Origin: a virus
Lineage: Duplodnaviria; Caudoviricetes
DNA: 60,366 bases
Virus record (IMG/VR): IMGVR_UViG_3300036846_000361
Span: 1 to 60,366 of that record
Reading direction: 5' to 3' (one strand)
In this document: piece after piece, positions 5,512 through 24,748 of the stretch
How positions within the stretch are numbered: the stretch's first letter is position 1
How the letters are laid out: every line of letters begins with the position of its first letter
Program-made: the position numbers and the translations under genes
The notes under the pieces: model-generated
Databases searched by the model: none
What the model saw: only the letters and a program-made list of their open reading frames with translations
What the model was told of the DNA's origin: nothing

Positions 5512-5526
5512 TCAGCACCCTTCCTC

Positions 5527-6216: not shown

Positions 6217-6244
6217 TCTTACTCCCTCCAAACTTTGTCAAGGG

Positions 6245-7150: not shown

Positions 7151-8685
7151 TACATCTCCTTGTCGATCAGGTCGGAGGCAATCGAACCTTCCAATTGCAT
7201 GTTCACGAACGGCGGTCGAGCGACGCATGAGTAGACGCAGGCATCCGCGCGATCCGGCGAATCAATACCGCGACCACGCATGTCGTCTTTCGACTCAATC
7301 TGAATGCGACCGAACGAGTCCACGAACCACTTGATCGACTGAAGCTGTTGATGGAGAATATCGTCCTCCGGATCCAAGTCGATCAAGCCTGCCTCCAGAT
7401 CCTGGCGAAACTGCCAATAGACCTCGGCACGACGATTCTTGAACTTGTCCGGGCGGTGAGCACGCTCTCCACCGGCAAAGCCGACGATCGCGTAACCCAT
7501 CTCGCGCAGACGATCATGCGGGCCGGCACCGAGCCCCACGATGTCAATCACAATCGGCGGGCGACGGAGATGGTCATGCCGATCGAGGATGTTCTTGATC
7601 CGGCCGGTCGATTGCATCGTGTCGGTCATTCCCCATGACTCGACGAACCGGATCACGCCACCGCGATTCCGGTACACGACCGACTTGTCGGTGCCCATGC
7701 GAGCTACGTCCACCCCGTAGCGACCCTTCTCAAATCCGGCCTTGTGAGTCTCGATCCCGGTCGTGATCATGCCAGGCGTGATCAGGTACTCGTCCGAAAC
7801 ATCGGGGAACTCGGCCATGACCTTGGAGACCCAAAGCGGGCTGCCCTCGCCCCAGTCACGACGGCGGTCTTCAACCCAACCCAGAGAGACCAGGTTCTCC
7901 GCGACGTCAGGAGGAACCGGCTCGCCGGTGAAGTTGGGCGTGTCATGCGCAGGGATGGTAACGACGTTCCAACCGGATCCAGGCTTGCATACTTGTGCAA
8001 AGCGGGATCCCGGATCATCGGGGTTGCCGATCGCCAGGAAACGGGCATTGTCGTTCGTCATGAGCGTCAAGGCCGCTACCCACAGCTGCTCCGGGATCCC
8101 GCACGCCTCGTCGAAGATGATCAGGATGTGACGCGCATGCAAACCCTGGAATGCGCTCTCGTCGTAGTCTGCTGGTTTGCGTCCCATCGCGATCAGTTCT
8201 TCGTTACTGTGACCCTCACCCATGTACATCTGGCAGTCCAGGGTGATCCTGCCAGGCAATTTGCCCTTCCTGTGCGCTCGGCGCATCTCGCGCCAGAGAA
8301 TTGCCTGAACCTGCGGCCAAGACGGCGCGGTGGTGATCGCGAACGCATCCCCCAGTTCGTGAACGTCGAGCCACCACAGCGCTACCCTGGACGCTATGAA
8401 GGACTTGCCAGGTCCGTGACAAGCCTTCACCGCCGTGTACTTGTTGACCACGACGGATTCTGCGATTTCTTCTTGCTTGCTCCAGATGAACTCACCCAGG
8501 CGTTCCTCGACCCAGGCGACGGGACTGTCCTGATACGGCGCAGGCTCGGGAAACATGTACCTGAGTGCCGCCGCTGCAGCCCCGGAGGGCAAGGGCGGTG
8601 TTGCGAACAGCGGGTCAGCGGGGGAGTCCTTCCGCTGTTGCCGAGGGGGTGCCGTCTTTGCCCTCCGAGCTTTAACGCTTGCCAT
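7150..8685 (-). CDS. Terminase large subunit
   Basis: Walker A ACHGPGKS, Walker B IIFDEA, coupling motif IGNP, nuclease GVDVAR and SPDRADA. Confidence 0.95.
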   Translation of the reverse strand: MASVKARRAKTAPPRQQRKDSPADPLFATPPLPSGAAAAALRYMFPEPAPYQDSPVAWVEERLGEFIWSKQEEIAESVVVNKYTAVKACHGPGKSFIASRVALWWLDVHELGDAFAITTAPSWPQVQAILWREMRRAHRKGKLPGRITLDCQMYMGEGHSNEELIAMGRKPADYDESAFQGLHARHILIIFDEACGIPEQLWVAALTLMTNDNARFLAIGNPDDPGSRFAQVCKPGSGWNVVTIPAHDTPNFTGEPVPPDVAENLVSLGWVEDRRRDWGEGSPLWVSKVMAEFPDVSDEYLITPGMITTGIETHKAGFEKGRYGVDVARMGTDKSVVYRNRGGVIRFVESWGMTDTMQSTGRIKNILDRHDHLRRPPIVIDIVGLGAGPHDRLREMGYAIVGFAGGERAHRPDKFKNRRAEVYWQFRQDLEAGLIDLDPEDDILHQQLQSIKWFVDSFGRIQIESKDDMRGRGIDSPDRADACVYSCVARPPFVNMQLEGSIASDLIDKEM

Positions 8686-9403
8686 TGGTTTCCTCAAGTT
8701 GGGCGACCGGCGTGCCTTCCAGCATGATCAGATGCTTGCGGACAACAACCGGCCAGACCGACCTCTGAGAAGGACTGAGGTCCAGATCCTTCTGAATGCC
8801 TTCCAGGAGCCGCGCGATCGTCGCGCCGAATTGCTCGGCCATGCGGACGGTGCGCTCGGCCAAACCCAGGGCGATCGCATCCTTGGAGTACCGCACAAGC
8901 CGGTCCAGTGCATCGGCCCGCGCTCTCTGGAAGACGTGAAGCTGTTTACCGCTGATCGTGAACTCGATCCAATCCGGCTTGTTGTTGATCTCGGCGATCT
9001 GCGAGGACAACCACTCGACCTCGCCCGCCGTAATCTTGATGGCCCAGACGATCGCGTCCAGGGCACTGATGTCCTTGGGCCGTCCCATGAACGTGATCTG
9101 ACGGTTCCTCTCAGCGCGGGCGCGATGCTGCGGCGAGCTTCCACCGTGGTACTTGCAGCGACCGAAGCCAGGATGGTCCGTTCCCCAGCCTGCCTTCTTC
9201 ATGCAATACAAGTCACCGCCGTTCTCGTCCCGCGTCTTGCGGTGAGCGGCGCAGTAACCGAGCTTCTCCCAATGCTCTTTACCGTTCGTGTTCGTGGAGG
9301 GCTGATCCCAGACATTCTTGCCCTTGCGGACGCGCGGCTTGTCCGTGATCTTCGTTCCGTTGACTGCGCGCTTGCGTCCTTCAGCGTGTGGGTACTTTGC
9401 CAC
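8672..9403 (-). CDS. Terminase small subunit
   Basis: Upstream of and overlapping TerL; C..C..GRCKYHGG motif typical of actinophage TerS-like proteins. Confidence 0.75.
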   Translation of the reverse strand: MAKYPHAEGRKRAVNGTKITDKPRVRKGKNVWDQPSTNTNGKEHWEKLGYCAAHRKTRDENGGDLYCMKKAGWGTDHPGFGRCKYHGGSSPQHRARAERNRQITFMGRPKDISALDAIVWAIKITAGEVEWLSSQIAEINNKPDWIEFTISGKQLHVFQRARADALDRLVRYSKDAIALGLAERTVRMAEQFGATIARLLEGIQKDLDLSPSQRSVWPVVVRKHLIMLEGTPVAQLEETNGKR

Positions 9404-9597
9404 TACAGGGGCGCCACTGGTCGCTTGATAACGACTACAGGCCCCGTGGAGTAGTAGTAGCCATGCACCGGATCAAAGAAGAACTCACGGATCGGCGGCG
9501 GCTGACCATAGCCAAGATCAATAGGCTCGTACTCTGGGGGTCTCCAAGTCGTGCCTTCGACGGCTTGGTCAACAAGGCGAGCGGGATCCGAGGACAC
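9403..9597 (-). CDS. Hypothetical protein
   Basis: 64 aa, stop coupled to TerS start. Confidence 0.5.
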   Translation of the reverse strand: MSSDPARLVDQAVEGTTWRPPEYEPIDLGYGQPPPIREFFFDPVHGYYYSTGPVVVIKRPVAPL

Positions 9598-9709
9598 GGC
9601 GAGACCCTATCGCAGCCGCGCGGCGGGCGCTAGACTGGTGTATCCGGCTCGCGTACGTCGGGCGGGCGCTCGCGTCCGCGCGTACCGGCGCGCGTTATAT
9701 AACAGCGTC

Positions 9710-10237
9710 CTACAGCTTGGTACGATCGAGGAGCTTAGCCGCGTAGAGGTACATATGAGAGAACGCGCTACGTTCGTGCTGCCTGCCTCGCACCCAGCAA
9801 TCGACAGGCTTCAGCATCTCCTGAGTCTTGTAGCGCGCGGCGGCGGCAGGCTCTTGCCACTGGACCTCGCTGAAGTGCTTGTGGCGTCTGTACGTGTCGT
9901 TGCGGCCAGAGCGGTAACCCTCAAAGGCCCACGCCACACGCTCGGGCGCGGTCGTGTCCTTGCCCGGAGTGGCGTTGGGCACGAGCCGGAAGTCCTCCAT
10001 GACCAGATGCACATGGTCGGCCGAGAGCAGGCTGACCGTGACGCACTGAGTCTTGAACCCGAGCCAGTAGCTCCAGATCAGGCGAGCCTGCTGCATGGGG
10101 TCGCCGGTGATGGTGGCCGAGCCCTTGTGCAGGATCAGGCGCATGCAGTCGGCGGCGAGTCGCTGTGTCGGGTCGATCACGCCCCAGGCAATCCCGGTGG
10201 ACTGCCCAGGGTCGATCGCGAACACACCAATGTTCAT
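9710..10237 (-). CDS. RuvC-like Holliday junction resolvase
   Basis: N-terminal AIDPGQSTGIA, LVMEDF, C-terminal HERSAFSH: RNase H-fold pattern. Confidence 0.75.
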   Translation of the reverse strand: MNIGVFAIDPGQSTGIAWGVIDPTQRLAADCMRLILHKGSATITGDPMQQARLIWSYWLGFKTQCVTVSLLSADHVHLVMEDFRLVPNATPGKDTTAPERVAWAFEGYRSGRNDTYRRHKHFSEVQWQEPAAAARYKTQEMLKPVDCWVRGRQHERSAFSHMYLYAAKLLDRTKL

Positions 10238-10485
10238 TTCGTCTCCTGCCGCAGGGACGAAGCCTCCAACGCCGCACGGGCTTTGCGCGCGACGTGGGTG
10301 AAGCCCGGGTGAGCTATGCCGTGAGCGTTCGACTTCTCAGCGAACTCCTTGATCCAGTCCAGGGCTTCGCGTGCAGCAGCAAGCTCGGCCACGAGACGTT
10401 CCAGTTCAGCCTCCGTGATCCAGGCCGCGCCAGTTGCAAGGATTTCTTCAGGTGTGCGTGCGGCGGTTGCGGGATCGTCGCTCAT
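10234..10485 (-). CDS. Hypothetical protein
   Basis: MSDDPAT... with ATGA overlaps at both ends. Confidence 0.55.
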   Translation of the reverse strand: MSDDPATAARTPEEILATGAAWITEAELERLVAELAAAREALDWIKEFAEKSNAHGIAHPGFTHVARKARAALEASSLRQETK

Positions 10486-10901
10486 GGCTTGTCTTCCTGC
10501 TGCGGCCGAAGATGGCGCATCTCTTGCCCCGTCGAGGGAATACCAGCGTCGAGTCCAAGCGGGTCTGCGCTCTCTTTCTGCTGCGGGGACGAAACCTCCA
10601 ACGCGGCCGTGATCCGGCGAAGGGCAATGTCGCGCTCGTAGATCCACTGGTTGATCTCGCCAGCCGTCGTGTGCGGTCCGATCCCCTCGAACTTGAACTT
10701 CGCCGTCCGGACGAACTCCTTGGCGGCTTCCAGGGCTTGCTCCTGCACGAGAAGCAGGCTGATGTTCCTCAATCCTGCGTCGAGAGTCTCTTTGTAGTCG
10801 CGTTCTGCGGATTCGGACCGACGTTTCCAGTAGGTGACTGCTTCGTTCCATTCTTCGAGCGTCTGCGGCTCCCGCTCGTTGCGTGCGGCGTCGTCAGTCA
10901 T
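10482..10901 (-). CDS. Hypothetical coiled-coil protein
   Basis: 139 aa, ATGA coupling; C-terminus similar to neighbour (ALEVSSPQQKE vs ALEASSLRQE). Confidence 0.6.
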   Translation of the reverse strand: MTDDAARNEREPQTLEEWNEAVTYWKRRSESAERDYKETLDAGLRNISLLLVQEQALEAAKEFVRTAKFKFEGIGPHTTAGEINQWIYERDIALRRITAALEVSSPQQKESADPLGLDAGIPSTGQEMRHLRPQQEDKP

Positions 10902-11143
10902 GGCTGTGGCGGGATAATCAGGGTGTCTTCTTCGTGCGCGCGAGCGGAGACTGACGGTGGGTCATGCTTCTCGTCATCTGTCAGGAAGTAGTCGATCGTC
11001 TTGTGCGCTTGGTCGGCCATGGCGCGAGCTTTCTCGTCGCCGTGTATGGCGATGTAGTGCGACAGCATCTCGCTCGCGCTGACCAGCCGGCCAACCATGT
11101 ACTCATAGTTCGGGTCCTGCGAGAGTTCTCTCAACGGTTTCAT
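10898..11143 (-). CDS. Hypothetical protein
   Basis: MKPLREL... after GGGGGAG; ORF may extend to 11287. Confidence 0.5.
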   Translation of the reverse strand: MKPLRELSQDPNYEYMVGRLVSASEMLSHYIAIHGDEKARAMADQAHKTIDYFLTDDEKHDPPSVSARAHEEDTLIIPPQP

Positions 11144-11279
11144 TCTCCCCCAAAATCTCATGGTGTTGTTACTGTTTGTGTGTTTGTACGTGCTGGGCGG
11201 TAGTGTTCGTTGCAGCCGGAGAACACGGCGAAGAAAAGTCCAAACGCGAACACGCAAAATGCTAGCATTGTGGCCCACC

Positions 11280-11471
11280 TCATCCAATGTGTTCCTTGAT
11301 CTGATATTCGAGCCGCTGTAGGATCTTACAGCGCTCGCACTTGGGCGTGGACTTGCGCTCGATGCAATCGGCCGACCACCAGCCGCCGAGGTTCGGTCGC
11401 TGCTGTGTGCAGGGGATCATGGTTGCGATAAAACTTTTTGCCGCGATCAGGTCACTGGTGAGGTCGGCCAT
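11280..11471 (-). CDS. Small Cys-rich hypothetical protein
   Basis: 63 aa, four Cys including CERC. Confidence 0.5.
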   Translation of the reverse strand: MADLTSDLIAAKSFIATMIPCTQQRPNLGGWWSADCIERKSTPKCERCKILQRLEYQIKEHIG

Positions 11472-11652
11472 GGTTCCTGATGGTGTCCTCGTCGGCGTGG
11501 GTCACGATCACGGTGTTCGGCGGCAGCCAAGGTTCGTAGAGAACTTGTGTGTCGGGATTCATCGCCCTGACAGCCTTGAGCTGGAGCTTGAGCTCCCAGA
11601 GCGTGATCTTGCCATGGGCGATCCGTCTGGTTAGTCCTTCACCAGGCTCCAT
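11452..11652 (-). CDS. Hypothetical protein
   Basis: 66 aa, packed in operon. Confidence 0.45.
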   Translation of the reverse strand: MEPGEGLTRRIAHGKITLWELKLQLKAVRAMNPDTQVLYEPWLPPNTVIVTHADEDTIRNHGRPHQ

Positions 11653-11825
11653 ACGATTTCTCTTTCTCCGTTCGGATACTGCACGACCATGTCGAGGCTG
11701 TCCTCACAGTCGAGGATGAAGATCAGGTACTGCTGGCCGTCCTTGGCCTGCCCGATTGTCTGGACGCGCGTCACGCCAACGGCGAGTCCGGTGCGTTTGT
11801 CGCCCGTGAATACGTCGATGTCCAT
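11631..11825 (-). CDS. Hypothetical protein
   Basis: 64 aa, packed in operon. Confidence 0.55.
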   Translation of the reverse strand: MDIDVFTGDKRTGLAVGVTRVQTIGQAKDGQQYLIFILDCEDSLDMVVQYPNGEREIVWSLVKD

Positions 11826-11828
11826 GGG

Positions 11829-12116
11829 TTAGGCCTGCGCCAGGTCTCGGCGCATACGCTTGAGTGCCCGCTTGGCCTCTGCCGCTTGGTCGTCGCCGTC
11901 GTCCTTGCAGATCCCGTCCGCGATCAGTTCTACCGCGTCGAGCAGATGAGCGACGCCATCGCGGATCTTCTCGATGTCGTACTCGTGGTTGATGTCCTCC
12001 TCGGTGATCGTCGTGATCGCCGTCATGGCCAGCTTGAAGTTCTCGATGCTATCACGCAGCACGATCGAGAACGTGGCCATCAGTTCCATCCTGACCAACT
12101 GCTCACTCCTCTTCAT
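11829..12116 (-). CDS. Hypothetical helical protein
   Basis: MKRSEQ... after RBS AAGGAAAGGA. Confidence 0.6.
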   Translation of the reverse strand: MKRSEQLVRMELMATFSIVLRDSIENFKLAMTAITTITEEDINHEYDIEKIRDGVAHLLDAVELIADGICKDDGDDQAAEAKRALKRMRRDLAQA

Positions 12117-12227
12117 GATTGTCCTTTCCTTCTGTGAGAACCGGAGCGGGGTGGCCCCCAAACTCACACCACCCCGCTCCAGCCGGGGAGAAGCGCCTGG
12201 TTGGCCCTCCAAGGCCGCCCGGCGTCT

Positions 12228-12476
12228 CTAGCTCGATTCTATCCGCTCCGGGTACGTGACGCTAATCGAGCCCTTTCCAGGGATTTCCTCGATGGATGAG
12301 ATCGTCTCCGTGGGGACTGCGACAAAGCGTCGTTCGCTTCTGAAGTTGAACATGGTGTCGTCGGTTTCGAGCGCATTGCGTAGGCGGTCGGTCATCTCTT
12401 GGCTGGGCTCGTCCGAGAACCAAGTGCGCGTGTCGGTCGTTAGGAGTGTGAATGGTTGGAGGTTTGGGTTTGTCAT
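12228..12476 (-). CDS. Hypothetical protein
   Basis: 82 aa, ATGA-coupled to upstream gene. Confidence 0.6.
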   Translation of the reverse strand: MTNPNLQPFTLLTTDTRTWFSDEPSQEMTDRLRNALETDDTMFNFRSERRFVAVPTETISSIEEIPGKGSISVTYPERIESS

Positions 12477-12808
12477 GTTCGCTTGGCCCCGCCAAGTTTG
12501 TACTCGATCGTGTAGCGGATGACCGAATCCATGTTCTCAAGTAGACCTTTGGAATCCAGTTCCTTGAACAACTCAAGCTTTCGTTCTTTCGGCACGAACC
12601 ATCCGTACCAAGTTTTGTTTCTTTTGTCCTCGAACGGCCTGACTTCTCCGCCAAACATCTTGGCGAGATACTCCAGGTGTTTTGGGTGTTTGGCTTCGAT
12701 CGTGACCGCTCCAATATCGCTTGGAGTCCGTAGACCAAAACCAATCATGAACGAGCCGACCAAGATCCCGAGTTCGTGGTCGGTGTACTTCTTTGCCCTT
12801 GCAGGCAT
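12473..12808 (-). CDS. LAGLIDADG-fold protein, apparently lacking catalytic acidic residues
   Basis: ELGILVGSF helix and LEYLAKMFGGEVR...WYGWFV match the LAGLIDADG core pattern; RBS AAAGGAGGGAG. Confidence 0.5.
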   Translation of the reverse strand: MPARAKKYTDHELGILVGSFMIGFGLRTPSDIGAVTIEAKHPKHLEYLAKMFGGEVRPFEDKRNKTWYGWFVPKERKLELFKELDSKGLLENMDSVIRYTIEYKLGGAKRT

Positions 12809-12850
12809 GCTCCCTCCTTTTCTTGTGCGATTGAATCCAACCGCCGACCG

Positions 12851-12856
12851 ATTATA
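12851..12856 (-). promoter_or_regulatory. Candidate -10 box (TATAAT) for the leftward operon
   Basis: Perfect TATAAT on minus strand 42 nt upstream of the 12808 start. Confidence 0.45.
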
Positions 12857-13220
12857 TACCTCCCGGCGCGCGCCCGACCCCCTAGCCCGAAGACAACTGC
12901 TGCTATATAAGAGCATCACTCGCGCGGCGAGAGGGAGATGCCTCGGGCGTACGTTTAATAGGATTTTCTTGTGTTTTTGTGTGTTGAATTGGGGATTTTG
13001 TGTGGTTTTTTTGTATGTAGGCGTGTTTTGACATGATCAGGTTTTTTTCGTGTATGCGATTCAGGAAAAGGTGCGTGGATCCAGCTGGTTTACGATTCGA
13101 CGTGTGTGATTGGGGGCAGATACGGGCGTGAATGGTGGGCAGGCGTGGAAAGTGTGTGTACGCAGGGGAAAGTGCTTGAAGGTTACAAAACAACCATCCG
13201 ACTTGACCGGAGTCCCGTCC

Positions 13221-13254
13221 AAAAAAAAAGCGAGACCCCCGAAGGGGTCTCGCT
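13221..13254 (-). terminator. Intrinsic terminator
   Basis: AGCGAGACCCC-TTCG-GGGGTCTCGCT hairpin followed by a T tract on minus strand, just after the 13280 stop. Confidence 0.9.
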
Positions 13255-13279
13255 CGCCGCTCGCGGTAGCGCGCGGTAG

Positions 13280-13765
13280 CTACCCGGTAGCGACCTCCGC
13301 GCCGGTCTCCGCGACTTCGTCCGTCCGGGTCGCGACCGCTCCGGCCCGCGTCCCGCGACCGGTATAGGAGCGATCGAGGCCGATCGAGGCGGGCGCCTTC
13401 GAGTAGAGGGCGCGAAGGCTCGCGACCGGGATCGTCTCGCGACCGTAGGCCGCGAACCGGTAGGAGAGGACTTCCCACCGCGCGAGCCGTCCCCCGGCGT
13501 CCCGCGCCTTCGCGACGGCCGCCGCGAGGCTACCGCGCTTCGCGACGGGGTTCGCGAGGCCGTTCCCGCGATAGTAGATCGCGGCGACTACCGGGACGAG
13601 CCGCGAGGCCGGGATCCCGGACTTCGCGGCGGCGACCTTCGTCGCGTTCGCGGGGGAGAGGCCGACGCGGAGGACTTCCGGCGTCGCCTTCTTCGTCTCC
13701 GCGCGGAAGGTCGCTTCGGCGGACGCCTTCGCGACTTCGATCGGGGTCTTCGTAGTACGGGCCAT
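13280..13765 (-). CDS. Basic, putative tandem-HTH DNA-binding protein; CA/TG-free gene
   Basis: RBS AAGGAG, own -10 box and terminator; similar to 23570-24052. Confidence 0.8.
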   Translation of the reverse strand: MARTTKTPIEVAKASAEATFRAETKKATPEVLRVGLSPANATKVAAAKSGIPASRLVPVVAAIYYRGNGLANPVAKRGSLAAAVAKARDAGGRLARWEVLSYRFAAYGRETIPVASLRALYSKAPASIGLDRSYTGRGTRAGAVATRTDEVAETGAEVATG

Positions 13766-13809
13766 TTCGGCTCCTTCGTTAGGCGACCGGCGAGCCGTTC
13801 CCGCCGGTT

Positions 13810-13837
13810 CTACCGGGATTCTACCGGACGCTACCGG
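13810..13837 (-). promoter_or_regulatory. Promoter region: three CCGGTAG repeats containing -10 TAGAAT (13818-13823)
   Basis: CTACCGG at 13810, 13821 and 13831 (10-11 bp phase). Confidence 0.55.
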
Positions 13838-14405
13838 GTCGCCGCGTTGAGTTCGCGCGATCTTAATATTCGGCCTCGATGGGCCGCGCGGCGCGATTAG
13901 CGATGAGTTGAGCGGCCGGTACGAAGCTTGATGGTGGTTGTGCCCGAGGTTGCGTTGGGTTGCGGCGAAGCGGATGCCGGCGGATGCCGCCCGGAGCCTG
14001 GCGGCTTCTCAACTCAACTCAATTCAAGGCAACCACGGAAACTGAACCGCAAAAATTGTGCCCTGCACAATGAACCGTGAAGGTTGTGCCAGTATGGTTA
14101 CAACTCAACCCTTATCAGTTCAACACTGAAAACGAAGTCTGGTTGGGTTATGCCTGTACAATTCATGTCAAACCACTAGAAAAGCTTGGTTGAGTTTTGC
14201 CTTGAGTTGAAAAACCACGAACCAGAGCGCGTATCCATGTCATATCAACCAAGAATCGAGTCGCGAAGTGTGTATATCGCAACTCAAATCAGTCGTCGCA
14301 TGTTAAATGATGGCAAAAAAAGGCCACCCAAAATCCACACAAACCCACAAATTCACACCCAAATCAACAGATTTCCAGGCAAAAAAAGTTGACCAACGAG
14401 TTCGG

Positions 14406-14433
14406 TAGGACCACCGTATGTTTACGGTAGAAT
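14406..14433 (+). promoter_or_regulatory. Rightward early promoter (TAGGAC-N16-TAGAAT)
   Basis: Same GG-TAGRRT -10 pattern as 23522 and 27888; a hairpin begins at the expected start site. Confidence 0.55.
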
Positions 14434-14438
14434 CGACC

Positions 14439-15082
14439 CGAGGTCTCCTCCGGAGACCTCGAAGTTGAATCCGAATCTTGAAAACTGACTTGTAGGGAGA
14501 GCGAAAGGGGAATCCCCTTCGCTCATGTTCCCGATTCCGGTAGGCAACTCTCGGAGATGAATCCCGGCGCGTAGGTAAGCGCCGCGCGTAGCGTCCGAGC
14601 CGAGCCGACTACCTCCCGCGACGGAGCGAAAGATGACTAGCGCGGCGGGAGGGACGAGACCGACCCGCTACTCAAGTAGCGTTGAAACGCCGGAATGTGA
14701 GGGCCTCAATCCACCGAGGAAGTAACGCCTATGAGTTGGGGTTCGAGAACCGAACCTTGAAAATGAGATCCCAAGTCCGGACGTAGCGCGCTCGACGACA
14801 TCGCAGCCGCGTACCCCGGAAGTTGACGCGGTTAGCCATACCGCACCAAGGGTAGGCTCGAAACTTGAGACTAGAGCCAAGAGAGAGGACAACTTCCGAC
14901 GGATCAAGAAACGCGCAAGCGTATATTGACCGCGCTACGGGCGGGCTTGAGGGGAAATGGTACCCCCCTCCTTACGGCCGAGCGGAGGGCAAAGGAAAGA
15001 CAATTCGAGCCTTTGCCCTCCGTTCATTAAGTACGGGCCAAGTCAGAAAAAGAGCCCGCATTTAATGAACGGATCCCCGTTC
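14439..15082 (+). ncRNA. Large structured non-coding RNA or structured early leader, unassigned family
   Basis: No convincing ORF; more than 10 hairpins plus long-range pairings 14485-14492/15039-15046, 14782-14790/14931-14939, 14817-14825/14890-14898. Confidence 0.65.
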
Positions 15083-15095
15083 AAAAGGAGGGAAA

Positions 15096-15401
15096 ATGGA
15101 CAAAGCGACCCAACGCCTACGGGCGCAGATCAAGTCCGAGCGTACAAAGAGAGGTCAACTCTCCCCGATTCATCCGAAATGGCTCGGGAAGAAAAACGGA
15201 CCATCTCAGAGAGTAACTCCGACAATCTGCGGCCATATCGAAGGCGGCGAGCAAATCCCGATCAAGCGTAAGCGAAAATCGGACAACTCGTACTATACGG
15301 TGATGATTATCGTTGGCGGAACGAGATGTACGAAACCAAGCGATATTCGGCATCCGCGCTACGGTCACCGTTGCCTCGATCATTCCGGGTGCGCCATCTA
15401 G
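15096..15401 (+). CDS. Basic hypothetical protein with C-terminal Cys/His cluster
   Basis: RBS AAAAGGAGGG; first ORF of the early region. Confidence 0.55.
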   Translation: MDKATQRLRAQIKSERTKRGQLSPIHPKWLGKKNGPSQRVTPTICGHIEGGEQIPIKRKRKSDNSYYTVMIIVGGTRCTKPSDIRHPRYGHRCLDHSGCAI

Positions 15402-15460
15402 CGATGGCCATCCCGGAGTGTCATCGACGACATTCCAATACCAACAAGGAGGGTACCGAA

Positions 15461-15610
15461 ATGGCAACTATCGCTGTCATCAAAACGACAAGCGGAAGTT
15501 ACAACGTCTTTGGAACGGAAGACGAGATGTTCGTCATCCAAGGCAACCTGACCTTCGAGCAACTGAAGAAGCTCAAGGTCGAGGTTGACAAGGCGGTGAA
15601 AGCTCGATGA
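15461..15610 (+). CDS. Early hypothetical protein
   Basis: ATG directly after motif 15448. Confidence 0.7.
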   Translation: MATIAVIKTTSGSYNVFGTEDEMFVIQGNLTFEQLKKLKVEVDKAVKAR

Positions 15611-15876
15611 AAACGGTAACGGTCCATTGTGACGCCGTTGACATCGAGGCGTTGATCGGCGCGGCTGATCTGCCGCTCGATCGGCTTCCCGATGTTCTCA
15701 TCGTGACCAATGATGAGAAGTGGGGCGACATCTTCTGGATCATGCCGGACATTCTCATGTTTGCCGGTGTTCCGGATGACCCTGAGTTGATCACGTTTCA
15801 GCGCGCGGTCGGAAGCGACATCGCAGAAGACGTGATCAACCGCGTTCGACGGATGTTCTGGGCAATTCAGCCGTGA
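15607..15876 (+). CDS. Early hypothetical protein
   Basis: ATGA-coupled. Confidence 0.65.
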   Translation: MKTVTVHCDAVDIEALIGAADLPLDRLPDVLIVTNDEKWGDIFWIMPDILMFAGVPDDPELITFQRAVGSDIAEDVINRVRRMFWAIQP

Positions 15877-15947
15877 TTGCGGGTGCCCGTCGAAAGACGG
15901 CATCCCGGAGTCATCGAACGATGCTCCAGTCCAAAAGGAGGGTACCA

Positions 15948-16208
15948 ATGAAGGTCAAGGCGATTTACCATCAGACCGAACCCGATGGAAAGCTTGTTCA
16001 TGTTGTCGATCATGACAACGGCGGCTTTGTGGTCTCATCGGAGAAGGTCGGCATCGCCGTTCAGAACTTCTTGAACGAAGCGACGAGTCTCGATATGCGT
16101 ACACTTCATACGCATCTGCTCTACGCCTTCAAGGATCGCTTCCAAGAAGAAGCAGACGCAGGCAACCATCCCACCCTGGACAATTGGCGAATCGACGAAC
16201 GGTCATGA
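15948..16208 (+). CDS. Early hypothetical protein
   Basis: ATG after motif 15937. Confidence 0.7.
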   Translation: MKVKAIYHQTEPDGKLVHVVDHDNGGFVVSSEKVGIAVQNFLNEATSLDMRTLHTHLLYAFKDRFQEEADAGNHPTLDNWRIDERS

Positions 16209-16285
16209 CACTCTACATCGTCACGACGTTCGCCATCGTCGCTTGGGGCGCTTTTGTCGCGTCGCTCTTGAGGTGGCTCGGATGA
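16205..16285 (+). CDS. 26-aa membrane peptide
   Basis: MTLYIVTTFAIVAWGAFVASLLRWLG, ATGA overlaps at both ends. Confidence 0.5.
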   Translation: MTLYIVTTFAIVAWGAFVASLLRWLG

Positions 16286-16458
16286 CGCAAATCCTGAAGT
16301 TCAGGGATGAACGCTTTCAACGCTGCCCAGAATGCGGAAGACCAACCGCACTTCTGAACAACGGACGGTTGAGACGACATTTCGTCGTTGACGAGAGCGG
16401 ACGGCATCTCTGCGTCGAACGAGCAATCGACCGGAAAGCATTGCGGGTGACCGGCTGA
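16282..16458 (+). CDS. Small Zn-finger-like protein
   Basis: CPECG...RRH...C pattern. Confidence 0.55.
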   Translation: MTQILKFRDERFQRCPECGRPTALLNNGRLRRHFVVDESGRHLCVERAIDRKALRVTG

Positions 16459-16517
16459 AAAGCCGGCATCCCGGAATGTCAGCCGGCATTTCGAACAACC
16501 CTAAAGGAGGGTACCGA

Positions 16518-17312
16518 ATGATCTATCTCGATGCGGAAGGCAATGAGTGGGAGTTCCGCTACATTGTCACGCAGACCGAGGATGAAGGCCCGGAGCGGTT
16601 GGAGTTTCGGGCACATGATCCGGAGCATCTCGACGACGCCTACAACCCTTGGCGTATTTGGAGCGAGAGCCTGCCGATCCTCAACGAAGCCTACAATCAC
16701 TTCCATGGCTTCTTGATCACGGCCGACATGAACCCGGACAACATCCCGACGCTCGCCGAAGCGTTCAGCAACATCCGACTCATCGCAGAGGAGGAGGACA
16801 ACGAGACGCTCAAGCACATCGGGGACATGGACGAGCCGTTGATCGCGCTCATCCGTGGAGCCCTTGAGGGCGACCTGTCTCCGAGCAATCGGGCGTTGCT
16901 GGCCCATCTCTGCGGCAAGACGATCACACTCGACACTGAGCCCGACGAGTACGAGTACAACGTCTCGCTACACGTCAAGGAGAAGGGCCAAGAAGTGTCC
17001 GAGTACCGGATGGTGATTGATTCCTTCCGGTTGTACTCTGAAAGCCCGTTGAACTTCGCCTTCGACCTCGAAGCGAAGATCATGAACATCGTCAACATGG
17101 GCAAGTATACGCGGCATGAAGTGGTCGCGTGGATCTCAACTGCCTCCGGCGATGAGCACTGGCTCATGACCTGGGCCAATGCGTCTGACCTGATCCTGCT
17201 GGAGCAGGCGTCGGCGCGCGGTTACGACGTCACGAGTCACTTCCAGAGCATCCAGGACGCGATGTCGATCGAAGGTCACAAGTTCGTCCGAGCACGAGCC
17301 GAGCGCAACTAG
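16518..17312 (+). CDS. Acidic early hypothetical protein
   Basis: ATG after motif 16506; 264 aa. Confidence 0.75.
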   Translation: MIYLDAEGNEWEFRYIVTQTEDEGPERLEFRAHDPEHLDDAYNPWRIWSESLPILNEAYNHFHGFLITADMNPDNIPTLAEAFSNIRLIAEEEDNETLKHIGDMDEPLIALIRGALEGDLSPSNRALLAHLCGKTITLDTEPDEYEYNVSLHVKEKGQEVSEYRMVIDSFRLYSESPLNFAFDLEAKIMNIVNMGKYTRHEVVAWISTASGDEHWLMTWANASDLILLEQASARGYDVTSHFQSIQDAMSIEGHKFVRARAERN

Positions 17313-17391
17313 CGCGTTCAGCGGCGGGGCAAGAAGAAAAGCTTGCCCGCGCCGGTGTCCAAAAGGCGCCATAACCAAAGGAGGGTACCGA

Positions 17392-17673
17392 ATGTCGTTT
17401 GTTCCCGATGCACAAGGAACAGCCAAGCGTCGCGAGCAGGATAAGGATATGATCCTGAATCCTGATCGTTGGCCTGTCTGGCCCAAGCTGCCGTTGAAAA
17501 GGCACGGCTATGAGCAGAATCATGGCTTCGCCTTCAACGGAAGCTTGAAAGACGACAACACACGTTCTCGCGTCTACCTGGCGACGATCTTCAGCGCCAT
17601 CGACGATGCGACGCTCTACATCGACTACCCCGACATCGATGCTCTACTCGATGACGGCTGGACGGTGGACTAG
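17392..17673 (+). CDS. Early hypothetical protein
   Basis: After motif 17380; WPVWPKLPLKR...LLDDGWTVD. Confidence 0.75.
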   Translation: MSFVPDAQGTAKRREQDKDMILNPDRWPVWPKLPLKRHGYEQNHGFAFNGSLKDDNTRSRVYLATIFSAIDDATLYIDYPDIDALLDDGWTVD

Positions 17674-17742
17674 TCAGCGGCAGGGGTTCACAGAACCCCT
17701 TGCCGGTGTCCATAAGGCCACCAGACCAAAAGGAGGGTACCA

Positions 17743-18030
17743 ATGGACTTTGTCGGACCAGGCTCCCGTAAAATCGGAGTCGGTTTGATGCGGATGTTCA
17801 AGTCCGGACACGAAGCGGCCAAGGTCTACCAGAAGACCAACGAAGGCATCAAGCTTCGCAAGTATCGCGAAGACAACGCCGACGTGGTAGCCGTCATCGA
17901 GATGGAGTCGTCACGTCCCACCGTCACCCGTACATTGATCGGCGCAGCAGTTGCAGGCCCGGTCGGTGCGATCGTTGGTCTCTCAGCACAGAAGAAGGAG
18001 ACCAAAACCGGGAAGGTGAGGGCAAGATGA
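17743..18030 (+). CDS. Early hypothetical protein with glycine-zipper segment
   Basis: After motif 17732; IGAAVAGPVGAIVG. Confidence 0.7.
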   Translation: MDFVGPGSRKIGVGLMRMFKSGHEAAKVYQKTNEGIKLRKYREDNADVVAVIEMESSRPTVTRTLIGAAVAGPVGAIVGLSAQKKETKTGKVRAR

Positions 18031-18302
18031 ACGAGATCATCCGCGCAGACGGCGGCGAGATGAACCCGACCACCGCCAAGGTGGTCGAGATCAGATTCGT
18101 CATCGACGGATCGTTCAAGACCGCCAACCTGATCGATGAAGTCTGTGACAACCTCGATTGGGTGTTCGCAGCCGTCGAACTGAACCCGGATGGATTCGGG
18201 CACACGGTTCCGGACATGAACGTCATGCGCACCGCTGCCTGGATGGACAGCGACGTCATGGCGGAGGTCGAGGAATCGCTGAAAAGCGGTGAGCCAAGGT
18301 GA
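18027..18302 (+). CDS. Early hypothetical protein
   Basis: ATGA-coupled. Confidence 0.6.
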   Translation: MNEIIRADGGEMNPTTAKVVEIRFVIDGSFKTANLIDEVCDNLDWVFAAVELNPDGFGHTVPDMNVMRTAAWMDSDVMAEVEESLKSGEPR

Positions 18303-18502
18303 AAGCTGAGCCTGGCAAGGTCGTACTCGTCTCCAGCATTCCGGGTTGCAACTTCTGCAATGACGGAACGCCAGGGCCGTACGACTTCAAGACGAGGATG
18401 GGCCCGTGGGCGAACGGTTGCGAGATGCACTATCGTCACCTTCGTGCTACCCCAGACCTCGGCGTCGGTATGGCTCAACTCTGGATCACAGAGGAGTCAT
18501 GA
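18299..18502 (+). CDS. Small Cys-containing hypothetical protein
   Basis: CNFC...YDFKT..GPWANGC..H. Confidence 0.65.
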   Translation: MKAEPGKVVLVSSIPGCNFCNDGTPGPYDFKTRMGPWANGCEMHYRHLRATPDLGVGMAQLWITEES

Positions 18503-18720
18503 TGGGAGCACACAGCCTAGCTGAAGCTCCGACACGGACGGTTCATGTCGTCCAGGTCTTGTCGAACGGCCGCATGATCTCTTTATGTGGCCGGGAAGCT
18601 GACGAGAGTTGGAAGCGCATCGCGCAGCACGACCAGGCGATCTTCGGCAAGGGACCGAGGTCAATCAGGGAAATGTTACCTGATCTGCGTCTCTGCGCTC
18701 TGTGTCTACCTCGATCATGA
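18499..18720 (+). CDS. Small Zn-binding hypothetical protein
   Basis: H...SLCG...CALC; RBS GAGGAG. Confidence 0.55.
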   Translation: MMGAHSLAEAPTRTVHVVQVLSNGRMISLCGREADESWKRIAQHDQAIFGKGPRSIREMLPDLRLCALCLPRS

Positions 18721-18875
18721 ACGGCATCGACATCCTCGTGATCGTGATCGTGCTCGCGATCGTGTTCGTCGGAGCGAATATGCTCGACAAGCACGAGACT
18801 GAGCTCGACGATGATGACGACATCGAGGATGAAGTAGCGAAAGCTCGCAAGCGCAAGCGTAACGGCGCAAGCTAG
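18717..18875 (+). CDS. 52-aa membrane protein (absent from ORF track)
   Basis: N-terminal TM, then acidic and basic tail; ATGA-coupled. Confidence 0.6.
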   Translation: MNGIDILVIVIVLAIVFVGANMLDKHETELDDDDDIEDEVAKARKRKRNGAS

Positions 18876-18943
18876 ACGGCACCCCGCGCAAGCGGGGCAC
18901 CGTGTGGCGTTCGCCACAGTACGAAACCAAAAGGAGGGTACCA

Positions 18944-19252
18944 ATGAAGAAGCTCCATCGCGAGAAGCTCGCAGATCTTGGCATCTCATCGAACAAGTAC
19001 GTCGTGCTCGAAGACGGGACGGTCATCTATGACAAGAACGACCGGCCCAACGGCGTACTGATTCCGATCATCTGGGGCATCACGCTCGAACACGATCGCT
19101 GGATGATGTATGTCGAGTACCAGACCGACGAGTTCGGTGGTCGTCCGCGTCATTACCTGCGCTGGTCGCAGGGTGAGAAGAACGACTTGTCGAGGCCATT
19201 CCTCCGGCAGCAGGATGCGATCGCTGCCGCGATCAGTTCGGTGTACGCATGA
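18944..19252 (+). CDS. Early hypothetical protein
   Basis: After motif 18933. Confidence 0.7.
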   Translation: MKKLHREKLADLGISSNKYVVLEDGTVIYDKNDRPNGVLIPIIWGITLEHDRWMMYVEYQTDEFGGRPRHYLRWSQGEKNDLSRPFLRQQDAIAAAISSVYA

Positions 19253-19512
19253 AGCCGAAAGAAGGTGACAAGGTCAAGGTCATCGACAGGCTCTCATCGC
19301 TCGGCGACGAAAGTGCTCCTGAGATCTGGATCGTCATCCAAGCTCACGACAATCTGGACGAATCCTGGGATCCGTTCGGTGAGTCCGCTTGGGCTCAAAA
19401 GGATCACGATACCGAAACCGGGCAAACCGGCGAATGGTACGTGATCTGCAAGACCGGCGAATGGATGGACGGCACGTGTAGCTTCGCCAGCTACGAGGTC
19501 GAGTCGCTATGA
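19249..19512 (+). CDS. Early hypothetical protein
   Basis: ATGA-coupled. Confidence 0.6.
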   Translation: MKPKEGDKVKVIDRLSSLGDESAPEIWIVIQAHDNLDESWDPFGESAWAQKDHDTETGQTGEWYVICKTGEWMDGTCSFASYEVESL

Positions 19513-19637
19513 AGCGAGGCAAGTATCTGCAGATCGGCTCGGGCAGCAGATCCCGCTCGATCGCCAAAGCAGAAGACAAGGCTCGCCGCTCTCGCAAGAA
19601 AGCAGACAAGAAGCAAGCACTCAAGGATCAATCCTGA
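19509..19637 (+). CDS. 42-aa basic peptide
   Basis: ATGA-coupled, K/R rich. Confidence 0.5.
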   Translation: MKRGKYLQIGSGSRSRSIAKAEDKARRSRKKADKKQALKDQS

Positions 19638-19714
19638 GCACTGCGCCTGCCCTCGGCAACGAGGGTTTGGCGGAGACCTCATGAGAGGCTCCAAACCAAA
19701 AGGAGGGTACCGAT

Positions 19715-19930
19715 TTGACGCGAAAGAAGCCGGCATACACACCGCCAAGGCTTCACGACCAATGCTTCATCGCGAAGACGTATGGCCCATGGTCGTCAGG
19801 GACTCGGGTCGAGATCATCAAGCTCGATATGCCTGCTGACTACGTGGTCGTGCGTCATACCTCGACAGGTGAGGAGTTCGAGATTGAACTCGATGTCCTC
19901 GTCAGGAAGCGAGACCGCAATCGTGACTGA
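19715..19930 (+). CDS. Early hypothetical protein (TTG start)
   Basis: After motif 19702. Confidence 0.65.
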   Translation: MTRKKPAYTPPRLHDQCFIAKTYGPWSSGTRVEIIKLDMPADYVVVRHTSTGEEFEIELDVLVRKRDRNRD

Positions 19931-20180
19931 ACTCACCGACGGCACCCGCATCCGCATCACGCAGAAGACCAAGCTATGGTATCCGAGCGTGGAGGCGAAT
20001 GTGGAGGTCGAACCTGGTCGCGAGTTCATCGCGATCGACAGGCCCGACGAGAACAATTACGGTTGGTGCCTGCCGGTGGTCGAGCCGGATGTGTACGCCA
20101 GCGATGTCGTCGAGATACACGACGACAGCATGATCGTAGTCTGCGATCCCGATTCGTTCGTGATTGTCGAGGAGAAATGA
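19923..20180 (+). CDS. Early hypothetical protein
   Basis: GTG start overlapping upstream gene end. Confidence 0.55.
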   Translation: MTELTDGTRIRITQKTKLWYPSVEANVEVEPGREFIAIDRPDENNYGWCLPVVEPDVYASDVVEIHDDSMIVVCDPDSFVIVEEK

Positions 20181-20383
20181 TCATCGACACGCCGGATGGG
20201 ATCGAAGCATACCGCATGCTCGCGATCTACCATCGGCTAAAGCTTGAGATGAAAGGAATCCGGTTCCGCATCTCGACCTTCGCCGTTGCGCGTCGCGAGT
20301 TGGGTATGAGCCCACGTACTCCCAGGGCCAAGGTTCTGGAAGCGTGGGAAGCGAAGATGAAGGAGAAGGGAATCAATGTCTAA
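20177..20383 (+). CDS. Early hypothetical protein
   Basis: RBS GAGGAG, ATGA-coupled. Confidence 0.65.
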   Translation: MIIDTPDGIEAYRMLAIYHRLKLEMKGIRFRISTFAVARRELGMSPRTPRAKVLEAWEAKMKEKGINV

Positions 20384-20564
20384 GCTGACAGTCACGTACG
20401 AGGCTGAGAGCATGGAAGACCTGGCTCAAGGTCTCGAAGCTCGGGCTGAGGAGTTGGAGCAGCAGGTCGGAAGCTCCAACCAGAGAAAAGGTCACCTGCT
20501 CAAGGCTGAGGCAGACGGCTACCGTGCCGCAGCTGAGATCGTCCGCAGAACGACGATCGGCTGA
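20376..20564 (+). CDS. Early hypothetical protein
   Basis: 62 aa, RBS GAAGGGA. Confidence 0.6.
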   Translation: MSKLTVTYEAESMEDLAQGLEARAEELEQQVGSSNQRKGHLLKAEADGYRAAAEIVRRTTIG

Positions 20565-20636
20565 CGATCCGGTGGGGTTGGGAAACCAACCCCTTCCGAA
20601 TCGCCAACTGGCGAGGAAACCAAAAGGAGGGTACCA

Positions 20637-21614
20637 ATGACAAGTGGAAAGCGGGACGATCTGTTCCGCAAGATCCAGGGACTCCTCGCAAAAGCCGAGG
20701 CAACCGAGCACGAAGGTGAACGTCAGGTGTTCATGGCGAAGGCCGATGAACTCATGATGAAGTACCGCATCGAGCTTTGGGAACTTCAGCAGCACGAGGC
20801 CGGTCGAATCTCCGAGCGCGAGCCGGTGGTCAAGGACTTTGACTACAGCTTCGCGTTTGAGTCGGGTCCATTCCCGGAGATCAGCGATGCGCTTTGGTCG
20901 CTGTTCTGCTCGACCGCAAGGCACGTCGGCTGCATCATCGTCTTCCACAAGCAGCACTGGAGCGGTGAGAAGAAGCAGTACATGTCGGCTGTCGTCCCGG
21001 TGATCGGCACCGAGAGCGACCAGGGTTACTTGACGCTGCTGTTCTCGTCACTCATGACGCAGCTGGTAGAGCAGATCCGGCCCAAGTACGATCCGGGCAA
21101 GGACTACTACCAGAACCTGCGCATGTTCAAGGAAGCGGGCTGGAACTGGCTGGAGACAGCCAAGGCCATGCAGGATGCCGGCTTCCATACCGACGTGACG
21201 AACGACAAGGCTCGTCACCTGACCGCTCACGCGTACCGCCGCTGGTGCAAGAAGATGGGCATCGACCAGAACTACTCCAACTGGAAGACGTACCGCCGCA
21301 ACTTCGCGGATGGCTTCGTCCACCGGGTGGCCGCTCGCTTCGTCGAGATGGCCGATGCTCAGAAGAAGGTCAAGAGCGACAGTGGCACCGGCTTCGATCT
21401 GGTCCTGCGCGAGCAGCATCAGATCAACCTGGACTTCCTGAATCAGATGTTCCCTGTGACGGGCACCGGCAGAGCCGTGACCGTCGCTCGCGATTCCCGC
21501 AAGTTCGACTCGTCTGCCTATGGCAGTGGTCGCGCAGCGGGCGATCGAGCGAACATCAGCGGCAACCCTGGCCGGGGAGTTCGGCCAGGTGGAGGTCGGC
21601 AACTGAAAAGTTGA
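20637..21614 (+). CDS. DUF2786-domain protein
   Basis: N-terminal KIQGLLAKAE...FMAKADELMMKYRI and C-terminal AY.SGRAAG.RA pattern. Confidence 0.8.
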   Translation: MTSGKRDDLFRKIQGLLAKAEATEHEGERQVFMAKADELMMKYRIELWELQQHEAGRISEREPVVKDFDYSFAFESGPFPEISDALWSLFCSTARHVGCIIVFHKQHWSGEKKQYMSAVVPVIGTESDQGYLTLLFSSLMTQLVEQIRPKYDPGKDYYQNLRMFKEAGWNWLETAKAMQDAGFHTDVTNDKARHLTAHAYRRWCKKMGIDQNYSNWKTYRRNFADGFVHRVAARFVEMADAQKKVKSDSGTGFDLVLREQHQINLDFLNQMFPVTGTGRAVTVARDSRKFDSSAYGSGRAAGDRANISGNPGRGVRPGGGRQLKS

Positions 21615-21697
21615 CGATCCGGTAGGAGCCTCATTGCGGCGGGGCTCCGTCCGAATCGCCAATAGTTGGCGGTTGAACAAACCCAAAGGAGGGTACC

Positions 21698-22306
21698 ATG
21701 GAACGGACACCGATCCCGCAGGAGTTGCGGGATTCCGGTCCACTCGCCTCGCCAGCGCAGGTCTCATATCTGAAGGCTCTGCGTGACGGCAAAACCCTGA
21801 GCTCACTAACTCAGGAACAAGTCGAGTGGCTCATCTCGACCGACTTCACCACGATCCCGAAGCGGCGCGCAAGCTCCGTCATCGAGACGCTGGTGGGGCT
21901 GCCTTGGAAGCCGAAGAACGAGCAAGAGGCAGCGCAGGTCGAGGCGAGAGGCGCAGGTCTGCCGGTGTCGATGAACGATCTGCCTGACGGCTACTACGCC
22001 GTCAAGGGTGTCGAAGGTCACAAGAACGACATCTCGTTCTTCCGCCTGCGCTCACCCAAGCAGGGCAACTGGGTCGGCTACCAGTTCACCGATCAGGTTG
22101 TGGGTCATGGGAAGCGGTATCCTGTCAAGGAAGCCGCCACCCGCGAGAAGATCCACGGCATGATCAAGGAACAGGGAGTCACCGAGTGCCGGCAGTTGTA
22201 CGGCCAGGAAATCGGTAGTTGCGGCCGTTGCGGTCGCGAACTCACCGACGACACCAGCCGCGCTCGGGGCATCGGCCCCGACTGCTGGGCGATCATGGGA
22301 GGTTGA
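21698..22306 (+). CDS. DUF6011-type Zn-finger protein
   Basis: C-terminal CGRCGRELTDDTSRARGIGPDC. Confidence 0.8.
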   Translation: MERTPIPQELRDSGPLASPAQVSYLKALRDGKTLSSLTQEQVEWLISTDFTTIPKRRASSVIETLVGLPWKPKNEQEAAQVEARGAGLPVSMNDLPDGYYAVKGVEGHKNDISFFRLRSPKQGNWVGYQFTDQVVGHGKRYPVKEAATREKIHGMIKEQGVTECRQLYGQEIGSCGRCGRELTDDTSRARGIGPDCWAIMGG

Positions 22307-22307
22307 C

Positions 22308-22583
22308 ATGGTTCTGCAGAAGGTCGATGGCGTTCAGATCTATGACGACAAGAACAAGCGGGTGTTTCTGAACACCCGAGTCGTCTCGTCAACGAACGTC
22401 GAGTGGGTCGGTTGGCCCGAGTCGGGTGAACCGATCATGTTCGTGCGGTACAGTTCCGGCAAGCTCTATGGATACCTCGGCGTCAGCCGCCAGCGCGCGG
22501 TCGCCGCTGCGTACTCATCGAGCGTCGGCGGCTACATCGCCCAGCGCGTCAAGCCGAAGTTCCAAGTTGTACAGATCAGCTAG
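22308..22583 (+). CDS. KTSC-domain protein
   Basis: VSSTNVEWVGW...VRYSSGKLYGYLGV...SSVGGY fits the KTSC pattern. Confidence 0.65.
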   Translation: MVLQKVDGVQIYDDKNKRVFLNTRVVSSTNVEWVGWPESGEPIMFVRYSSGKLYGYLGVSRQRAVAAAYSSSVGGYIAQRVKPKFQVVQIS

Positions 22584-22647
22584 TTGCGGCGGACCAATCG
22601 AGAGATTGGCCGCCCGGAGCTAACTGCTCCAGAAAGGAGGGTACCAA

Positions 22648-24681: not shown

Positions 24682-24748
24682 GATTCCGGTAGCGCGCGCA
24701 AAAGTTCGCGACGACAAAAGGTAGCCGTTCTACCCGGCGTTGGCGCGA

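Follow-up and report, generated by a model that had tools for sequence, protein, structure and literature searches.

What occupies the 1.33-kb gap (13766-15095) that separates two divergent operons in the phage IMGVR_UViG_3300036846_000361? The window analysed here is the complete 60,366-bp IMG/VR record of this phage (Caudoviricetes), with direct terminal repeats at its ends, and the gap is bordered by a leftward gene (13280-13765, - strand) on one side and by the first gene of the early operon (+ strand) on the other. An earlier note, made from the sequence alone, had proposed that positions 14439-15082 of this gap encode a new large structured phage RNA. Our analysis suggests that this RNA is the untranslated 5′ leader, about 650 nt long, of the early operon, and that it would combine boxA-dependent antitermination with translational masking of the first gene (Table 1). 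We assign to this reading a probability of roughly 0.6.

The coordinates and the scarcity of open reading frames given in the earlier note are correct. The region is non-coding: stops are present in every frame, with 7-13 per reading frame in the leader of the window and 2-13 across the nine leaders of the family, which rules out a protein-coding reading. This family comprises nine full members, i.e., the window and eight other IMG/VR contigs, and one fragment (L003), a diverged leader copy interrupted by the end of its contig. Measured from the promoter box to the ATG, the nine leaders are 571-931 nt long.

Table 1. Features of the leader locus and of the early genes that it precedes (positions in the window)
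Feature	Positions	Strand	Remark
Whole leader RNA	14439-15095	+	From the presumed start to the base preceding the ATG of the first early gene; homologues at the same place in eight contigs and in the cut copy L003
Promoter-like box TAGGAC-N16-TAGAAT	14406-14433	+	Extended -10 element CGGTAGAAT at 14425-14433
5′-terminal hairpin HP1	14439-14461	+	First hairpin in 9/9 leaders; sequences differ
boxA-like motif 1 (GAATCTTGAAAAC)	14473-14485	+	One of the two YTTGAAAAY matches in the genome
Hairpin 2, GAGCGAA...TTCGCTC	14492-14526	+	Consensus helices 3 and 4, with 3 and 5 pairs changed on both sides
Domain I	14536-14694	+	Helices 6-11; closed by UCCGGU/GCCGGA (14536-41 with 14689-94)
boxA-like motif 2 (GAACCTTGAAAAT)	14752-14764	+	Second of the two YTTGAAAAY matches in the genome
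Domain II	14772-14949	+	Long-range closing helix pairs 14772-14795 with 14926-14949 (CAAGUCCGGACGUA.../...UACGGGCGGGCUUG)
Invariant block TGGTACCCCCCTCCTTACGG	14958-14977	+	Complement of the Shine-Dalgarno/start-site motif
Hairpin H1	14980-15025	+	First of three hairpins from the block to the ribosome-binding site
Hairpin H2	15026-15066	+	Second of the three
Hairpin H3	15067-15082	+	Third of the three
Shine-Dalgarno sequence AAGGAGGG	15085-15092	+	Precedes the first early gene
First early gene	15096-15401	+	101 aa; conserved downstream of 9/9 leaders
Ten copies of aaCCaAAAGGAGGGTACC(r)A(A)TG	15448-22644	+	Each 4-6 nt ahead of an early-gene start codon

Conserved folding of the leader RNA

Folded as a single sequence, the leader reaches -277 kcal/mol versus -223 kcal/mol for shuffled sequences, a z-score of -8.8 for the + strand; the - strand has a z-score of -7.5 (20 shuffles each). 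The leaders fall into two sub-families that were compared separately. In that of the window (with L008 and L009), the consensus fold contains 148 pairs in 23 helices; 86.4% of its cells are paired, versus 75.5% in shuffles, and 53 pairs are altered on both sides, versus 23.5 in shuffles, none of 500 shuffles giving as high a count. When the 3′ partner column was shifted by one to three positions, only 5-16 such changes were counted. The sister sub-family (L092, L096, L099, L105 and L106) yielded 112 pairs, with 86.6% of cells paired versus 76.1%, and 45 pairs changed on both sides versus 19.3 (again 0/500 shuffles as high, and 7-15 in the shifted-partner controls). Compensatory changes, which the earlier note had proposed to look for, were therefore found in both sub-families by counting pairs against shuffles.

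Since MAFFT alignments of the 3′ module were out of register, we used helix-by-helix strand-swap tests, in which every 5′ strand was paired with every 3′ strand among the nine leaders and the energies of cognate and non-cognate combinations were compared over 5000 permutations. Cognate strands paired more stably for HP1 (-15.2 versus -8.2 kcal/mol), H1 (-23.9 versus -15.2), H2 (-18.3 versus -9.4) and H3 (-11.2 versus -7.0), and in each case none of the 5000 permutations was as good. Two observations concern the strand: G-U cells outnumber A-C cells (43 versus 17), which favours the + strand, and pairing amounts to 86.4% on the + strand versus 80.4% for the same structure mirrored onto the - strand.

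Most of the stems listed in the earlier note are kept or compensated in the relatives. This holds for HP1, GAGCGAA/TTCGCTC, CGGCGC/GCGCCG, CCTCCCGC/GCGGGAGG, GGTTCG/CGAACC, the 16-bp stem of H1 and the enclosing CCGG helix that closes domain I, but not for CGCTAC/GTAGCG, which is present in the single-sequence fold and absent from the consensus fold. The closing helix of domain I is 100% paired in the three sequences of the window sub-family, with one compensated pair, and helices 8, 9 and 11 of this domain show 4, 4 and 3 compensated pairs, respectively. The 21 pairs closing domain II are 90.5% paired, five of them being altered on both sides, and L008 and L009 retain this helix, with energies of -14 to -16 kcal/mol. 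When the leaders were folded independently, the three hairpins of the 3′ module appeared as separate elements in four of the nine; elsewhere, the parser merged them into larger stem-loops. Two other pairings in the earlier note did not hold up. The 9-bp pseudoknot (14817 with 14890) is predicted at -14.8 kcal/mol in the window, and in L008 and L009 it falls to -7.3 kcal/mol or the segment is absent; the pairing of the 5′ and 3′ parts (14484 with 15040) goes from -11.9 kcal/mol to -2.3 and -5.4 kcal/mol in the same two relatives. This non-conservation rules out both as conserved features.

No known RNA family accounts for the fold. Rfam 15 (4227 models) gave no match at gathering score over the whole window. 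A lenient scan (E up to 10) of 13700-15400 returned four hits of 13.6-18.1 bits, to be compared with thresholds of 40-153, and the same scan of eight relatives returned nine weak hits to nine different families, none recurring between relatives. No score reaches the gathering threshold for ROOL, GOLLD, RNase P, tmRNA, group I and II introns or riboswitches, and the failure of the earlier note to recognise RNase P, tmRNA or group I/II cores is borne out by this covariance-model scan. The absence of an Rfam match, together with covarying pairing in two sub-families, supports the proposal of a new large structured RNA.

The invariant block and the start sites of early genes

The earlier note overlooked an invariant anti-Shine-Dalgarno block near the 3′ end of the leader, as well as its match to a motif located at the starts of early genes. 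None of the nine leaders departs from the block consensus, UGGUACCCCCUCCUU(U)ACGG, apart from one additional C in the window; the pattern TGGTACCCCC-(0-1 nt)-TCCTT-(0-1 nt)-ACGG is matched in 9/9, and CCCCTCCTT occurs a single time in the genome. Full-length partition functions predict, for each of the nine leaders, pairing between the block and the Shine-Dalgarno region of the first gene, at probabilities of 0.6-1.0. The minimum-energy folds of the 3′ module contain the same pairing in 9/9 cases, enclosing the three hairpins, and forcing the ribosome-binding site open costs 4.5-17.7 kcal/mol. An alternative partner of the block, helix 12, is present only in the three-sequence sub-family of the window. 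From the pairing predicted in all nine leaders, we infer that the block may mask the start of the first gene and thereby regulate it. As in other leaders that sequester Shine-Dalgarno sequences (riboswitch platforms, RNA thermometers), an upstream CCUCC-containing stretch would pair with the Shine-Dalgarno sequence. Unlike in those systems, no ligand-binding domain was recognised and there is no conserved alternative pairing; moreover, the leader is far larger, and its masking stretch also matches the starts of many other genes.

The block, which has two or three extra C, is otherwise the complement of the start-site motif AAGGAGGGUACC. The ten motif-bearing starts of the window belong to consecutive early genes (15461 to 22648). 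The core of the motif, GGAGGGTAC, has 11 copies on the + strand and one on the - strand, 3.8 being expected for the wider pattern GGAGGKWMC, and a start codon lies 4-6 nt downstream of 10 of the 11 + strand copies. In eight related records (G001-G008), the early-gene strand has 6-15 copies of GGAGGGTAC and the opposite strand at most one (from 6:0 to 15:1); the number, strand and position of the motif are conserved across the eight.

Could the RNA then act in trans? The body of the leader, cut from the transcript or outliving it, would pair through its block with the AAGGAGGGUACC of some 10-15 early genes and shut off or time their translation as the RNA accumulates. The block, including GGUACC, is invariant in the nine leaders though its cis partner, the first gene of the same leader, is without GUACC in four of them (window, L096, L099 and L101). 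The distribution of the motif, ahead of 10 early genes in the window and 6-15 times on the early-gene strand of each of the eight relatives, points in the same direction, as do the duplexes predicted between the block and the motif-bearing start sites, at -19 to -26 kcal/mol versus a mean of -12.4 kcal/mol (sd 5.0) for 48 other genes. However, duplexes about as stable, down to -24.0 kcal/mol, are also obtained at several ordinary strong Shine-Dalgarno sites, and the predicted folds already engage the block in cis. Covariation between block and motif cannot be scored, since both are invariant in all members, and the more distant terminase relatives have no comparable start-site motif that would allow their co-variation to be followed. 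We consider this trans-acting reading unlikely. That one folded RNA times or shuts off the translation of 10-15 early genes both in cis and in trans, its block covering their ribosome-binding sites and boxA ensuring synthesis of the RNA, is a tentative possibility.

The motif resembles the start-associated sequences of cluster K mycobacteriophages, for which, in the excerpt of PMC3203893 considered here, the binding partner was left open as either a phage-encoded RNA or a protein, in line with an action in trans. The two share a repeated asymmetric motif that includes the Shine-Dalgarno core and shortly precedes start codons, as well as a restriction to non-structural genes and to one orientation, with a single opposite copy (PMC3203893, same excerpt). 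The sequences differ, AAGGAGGGTACC here versus GGGATAGGAGCCC in cluster K as given there, making the motif an analogue and not the same element, and the present phages, unlike cluster K as described in that excerpt, have a conserved complementary block within a structured leader RNA.

A further + strand copy of the motif lies at 27270. The sole opposite-strand copy is located in the region 24676-24810, where a third CGGTAGRAT -10-like box (24676, + strand) is followed by a hairpin of -46 kcal/mol (z = -5.45) in which UUGGUACCCUCC complements the start-site motif exactly. Exactly one opposite-strand copy was likewise found in seven of the eight related records, and none in G007, a 28%-complete fragment.

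boxA motifs, promoter-like box and the first early protein

The earlier note had pointed to a likeness to the boxA of rRNA leaders near 14476, and the sequence there does correspond to YTTGAAAAY, matching published rrn boxA sequences. YTTGAAAAY has two copies in the 60-kb genome, both within the leader, and 12 of its 16 copies in the eight related records are also within leaders. The shorter form YTTGAAAA comes after HP1 in the nine leaders and in L003. Motif 1 and the motifs of the relatives resemble the B. subtilis consensus AUGAUCUUUGAAA, and motif 2 (14752-14763) is identical in 12/12 bases to the cyanobacterial spacer boxA GAACCTTGAAAA. A related sequence is also found in Mycoplasma, presumably in an rRNA spacer. 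As reported in excerpts of the respective papers, AUGAUCUUUGAAA is the boxA-like consensus of B. subtilis rrn operons, located after a 5′ hairpin and bound by NusB (PMC13753749; 2026 mBio), GAACCTTGAAAA is the boxA of cyanobacterial 16S-23S spacers (PMC8461337), the related conserved sequence has been used as a Mycoplasma PCR primer (PMC3019172), and a polymerase modified via boxA resists Rho-dependent terminators (PMC2724277). In consensus match and in placement, the sequence has the attributes of an rrn-type boxA leader, so recruitment of Nus factors and antitermination by the leader boxA may be envisaged by analogy. The succession of a 5′ hairpin and a boxA, the second boxA downstream and the long untranslated structured transcript are all shared with the antitermination signals of rRNA operons. 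Unlike these, the present leader belongs to a phage and precedes protein-coding genes, with no rRNA and no boxC identified.

The -10 box that the earlier note placed ahead of the RNA is real: TAGAAT (14428-14433) is part of a conserved box, TAGRNN-N16-17-TAnnnT, which a regular expression detects directly 5′ of the 5′ hairpin in eight of the nine full leaders (L101 has no match) and which can be seen by eye in the cut copy L003 as well. The order promoter box, hairpin, boxA thus holds in 8/9 leaders, and the conservation of the box suggests that transcription would start near 14439. Between the RNA and the first gene, no terminator-like site is predicted on the + strand. The 60-kb genome has just three copies of CGGTAGRAT, located at 13818 (-), 14425 (+) and 24676 (+). 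The - strand copy, CGGTAGAAT at 13818-13826, lies about 50 nt 5′ of the leftward gene and is probably its promoter; the short 5′ region of that gene shows no excess folding (z = +0.6).

The position of the first early gene recalls the pL-nutL-N leader of lambda, and an N/nut system of the lambda type was considered, in which the first early protein would bind a leader hairpin beside boxA through its arginine-rich N-terminus, alter the polymerase and regulate its own translation by feedback. Lambda N is known to be autoregulated, with RNase III processing of the N leader, and the start site of N is buried in leader structure, as is predicted for the first early gene here. In both phages, the leader is the first transcribed stretch of the early operon, contains a boxA and is followed by a small basic first gene with an N-like N-terminus. 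The proteins of the present family (89-128 aa, basic) begin with MDxxTRxxRARxK, in which M1, D2, T5, R9 and K13 are invariant, and align with lambda N over 13 residues (MDAQTRRRERRAE). This alignment is not significant, with a hhalign probability of 2.9% over 13 columns and a pairwise P-value of 0.016, and the first early protein had no match in Pfam, PHROGs or PDB, the ESM Atlas returning just unnamed viral clusters (scores 0.79-0.80). The conserved part of the family, with three invariant cysteines that might bind metal, is absent from lambda N. No boxB-like conserved loop is recognisable either, the loops of HP1 and of the post-boxA hairpin varying among the nine leaders; moreover, the leader is about three times longer than that of lambda and contains two large covarying multi-helix domains. 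An N/nut system is quite improbable on these grounds.

It is highly improbable that the conservation acts at the level of DNA (replication origin, operator field or packaging signal), with the stems as by-products of inverted repeats: the region is situated between divergent promoters and adjoins a cluster of CAACTCAA repeats, its - strand also folds well and the strand preference is modest, but the excess of G-U over A-C cells, the covariation of nested long-range helices up to 280 nt apart and the location of both boxA and the anti-Shine-Dalgarno block on the strand of the downstream genes speak against it, and the CAACTCAA cluster is upstream of the promoter, outside the RNA. This cluster (14010-14287, amid the two divergent promoters) contains five of the seven exact CAACTCAA copies of the genome and may be an operator or iteron field; similar repeats are found 5′ of the leaders in L003, L092, L096 and L106.

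Proposed working, family extent and meaning

In the reading that we prefer, that of an untranslated antitermination and masking leader, the host RNA polymerase would initiate at the conserved TAGRNN-N16-17-TAnnnT promoter. The nascent 5′ hairpin and boxA, and later the second boxA, would then recruit NusB/S10 and yield a termination-resistant polymerase. Such resistance, which passage through an untranslated stretch of this length would require, would spare the transcript Rho-dependent termination both there and along the early operon. The two multi-helix domains, whose pairing is conserved, would fold next; these large central domains might serve as a sensor or as a scaffold for protein binding. 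Finally, the block GGUACC(C)nCUCCUU would pair with the Shine-Dalgarno sequence of the first gene across the three-hairpin junction and mask its start. Since the block complements AAGGAGGGUACC at about ten starts, it may act on those early genes too, a step that we regard as speculative.

Several points weigh against this reading. A coding stretch of the same length adjoining the leader folds at z = -5.6, which makes the z-score of the leader weak evidence when taken alone; the comparative data carry the case. In these data, the structures were predicted on the same alignments that were used for counting pairs, and the sub-families contain only three and five related sequences, so that the shuffle counts are strong indications and not probabilities. 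The central domains differ between the two sub-families. With the ribosome-binding site forced open, no conserved alternative partner of the block emerged, the partners differing in all nine leaders, and no switch mechanism is therefore in hand. The second boxA is partly buried in the predicted helix 13, and a generic sigma-70 scan called no promoter in the leader region.

The earlier note had hesitated between a non-coding RNA of the ROOL/GOLLD class and an antitermination leader of the early operon. The second fits better because of the promoter-like box, the lack of a + strand terminator, the rRNA-type boxA and the pairing with the ribosome-binding site of the first gene. The RNA is not a member of the ROOL or GOLLD families, though it may conceivably be a free-standing RNA resembling them. 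RNAs of the ROOL/GOLLD size class are similar in length to the present leader, and occurrence in phage genomes and the presence of many conserved helices are further common traits. Unlike them, the present RNA is continuous with the downstream gene and is predicted to pair with the ribosome-binding site of that gene. Its functional modules are of known kinds, i.e., boxA leaders and Shine-Dalgarno-sequestering leaders, as in lambda and rRNA operons. What is new is the RNA family itself, its size, its multi-domain architecture and the block matched to a motif common to a set of early genes. A family of covarying multi-domain phage leaders of 570-930 nt is not present in Rfam, and none came up in literature searches, which were not aimed at such leaders.

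The family was assembled by several routes. Terminase relatives led to 79 loci; a homologue at the same distance is present in each of the three whose terminase identity is about 70-80% and whose upstream DNA is long enough (L008, and L009 and L011, which are identical to each other). Aligning the leftward gene, itself conserved, recovered L092 and L096, and the pattern of the most conserved 20-nt block recovered L099, L101, L105 and L106, plus the unrelated L102. The leftward gene is kept in the four loci compared. Other searches did not extend the family: the DNA of 13700-15400 had no match among 50,697 phage records, tblastn with either flanking protein found none in cultured phages, and scans with each of the two flanking genes as a single protein gave no hit. 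The DNA pattern CTACGGGCGGNCTTGNGGG matched seven viral loci, three of them known copies and four unrelated (L083-L086); one metagenome scan gave four loci, none similar to the leader (nhmmer, E up to 10), and one genome scan gave three loci, unrelated by eye, with no prophage copy seen. A relaxed block pattern added only the unrelated L121, and a scan with a five-sequence protein alignment recovered solely known members. The contigs L007, L012 and L016 (and L002) start about 3.2 kb upstream of the terminase gene, a shared start that may be the genome end of those phages.

In the genome, the - strand (1-13765 and 43088-60366) carries the structural genes, encoding protease, portal, terminase, CHAP endolysin, sheath, tape measure and baseplate proteins. 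The + strand from 15096 to about 43006 carries early and replication genes, encoding an SNF2 helicase, a PD-(D/E)XK nuclease, a primase with an MCM-type ATPase domain, a DnaE-type polymerase and ThyX. The closest cultured terminases are those of Arthrobacter phages (42% identity), which, together with the presence of DUF6011, DUF2786 and a CHAP lysin, suggests an actinobacterial host. We probably deal with a previously undescribed family of very large structured leaders in a few uncultivated phages that form a small group and resemble those of actinobacteria. If the boxA reading holds, phages of Gram-positive-type hosts would borrow the rRNA antitermination of their host without a recognisable N/boxB pair. 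The block, for its part, gives start-associated sequences a concrete partner that can be put to the test; in mycobacteriophages, the function of these sequences was left open (PMC3203893, in the excerpt considered here). If the combined action in cis and in trans were true, the RNA partner of these sequences, whose function has been open since 2011, would be named.

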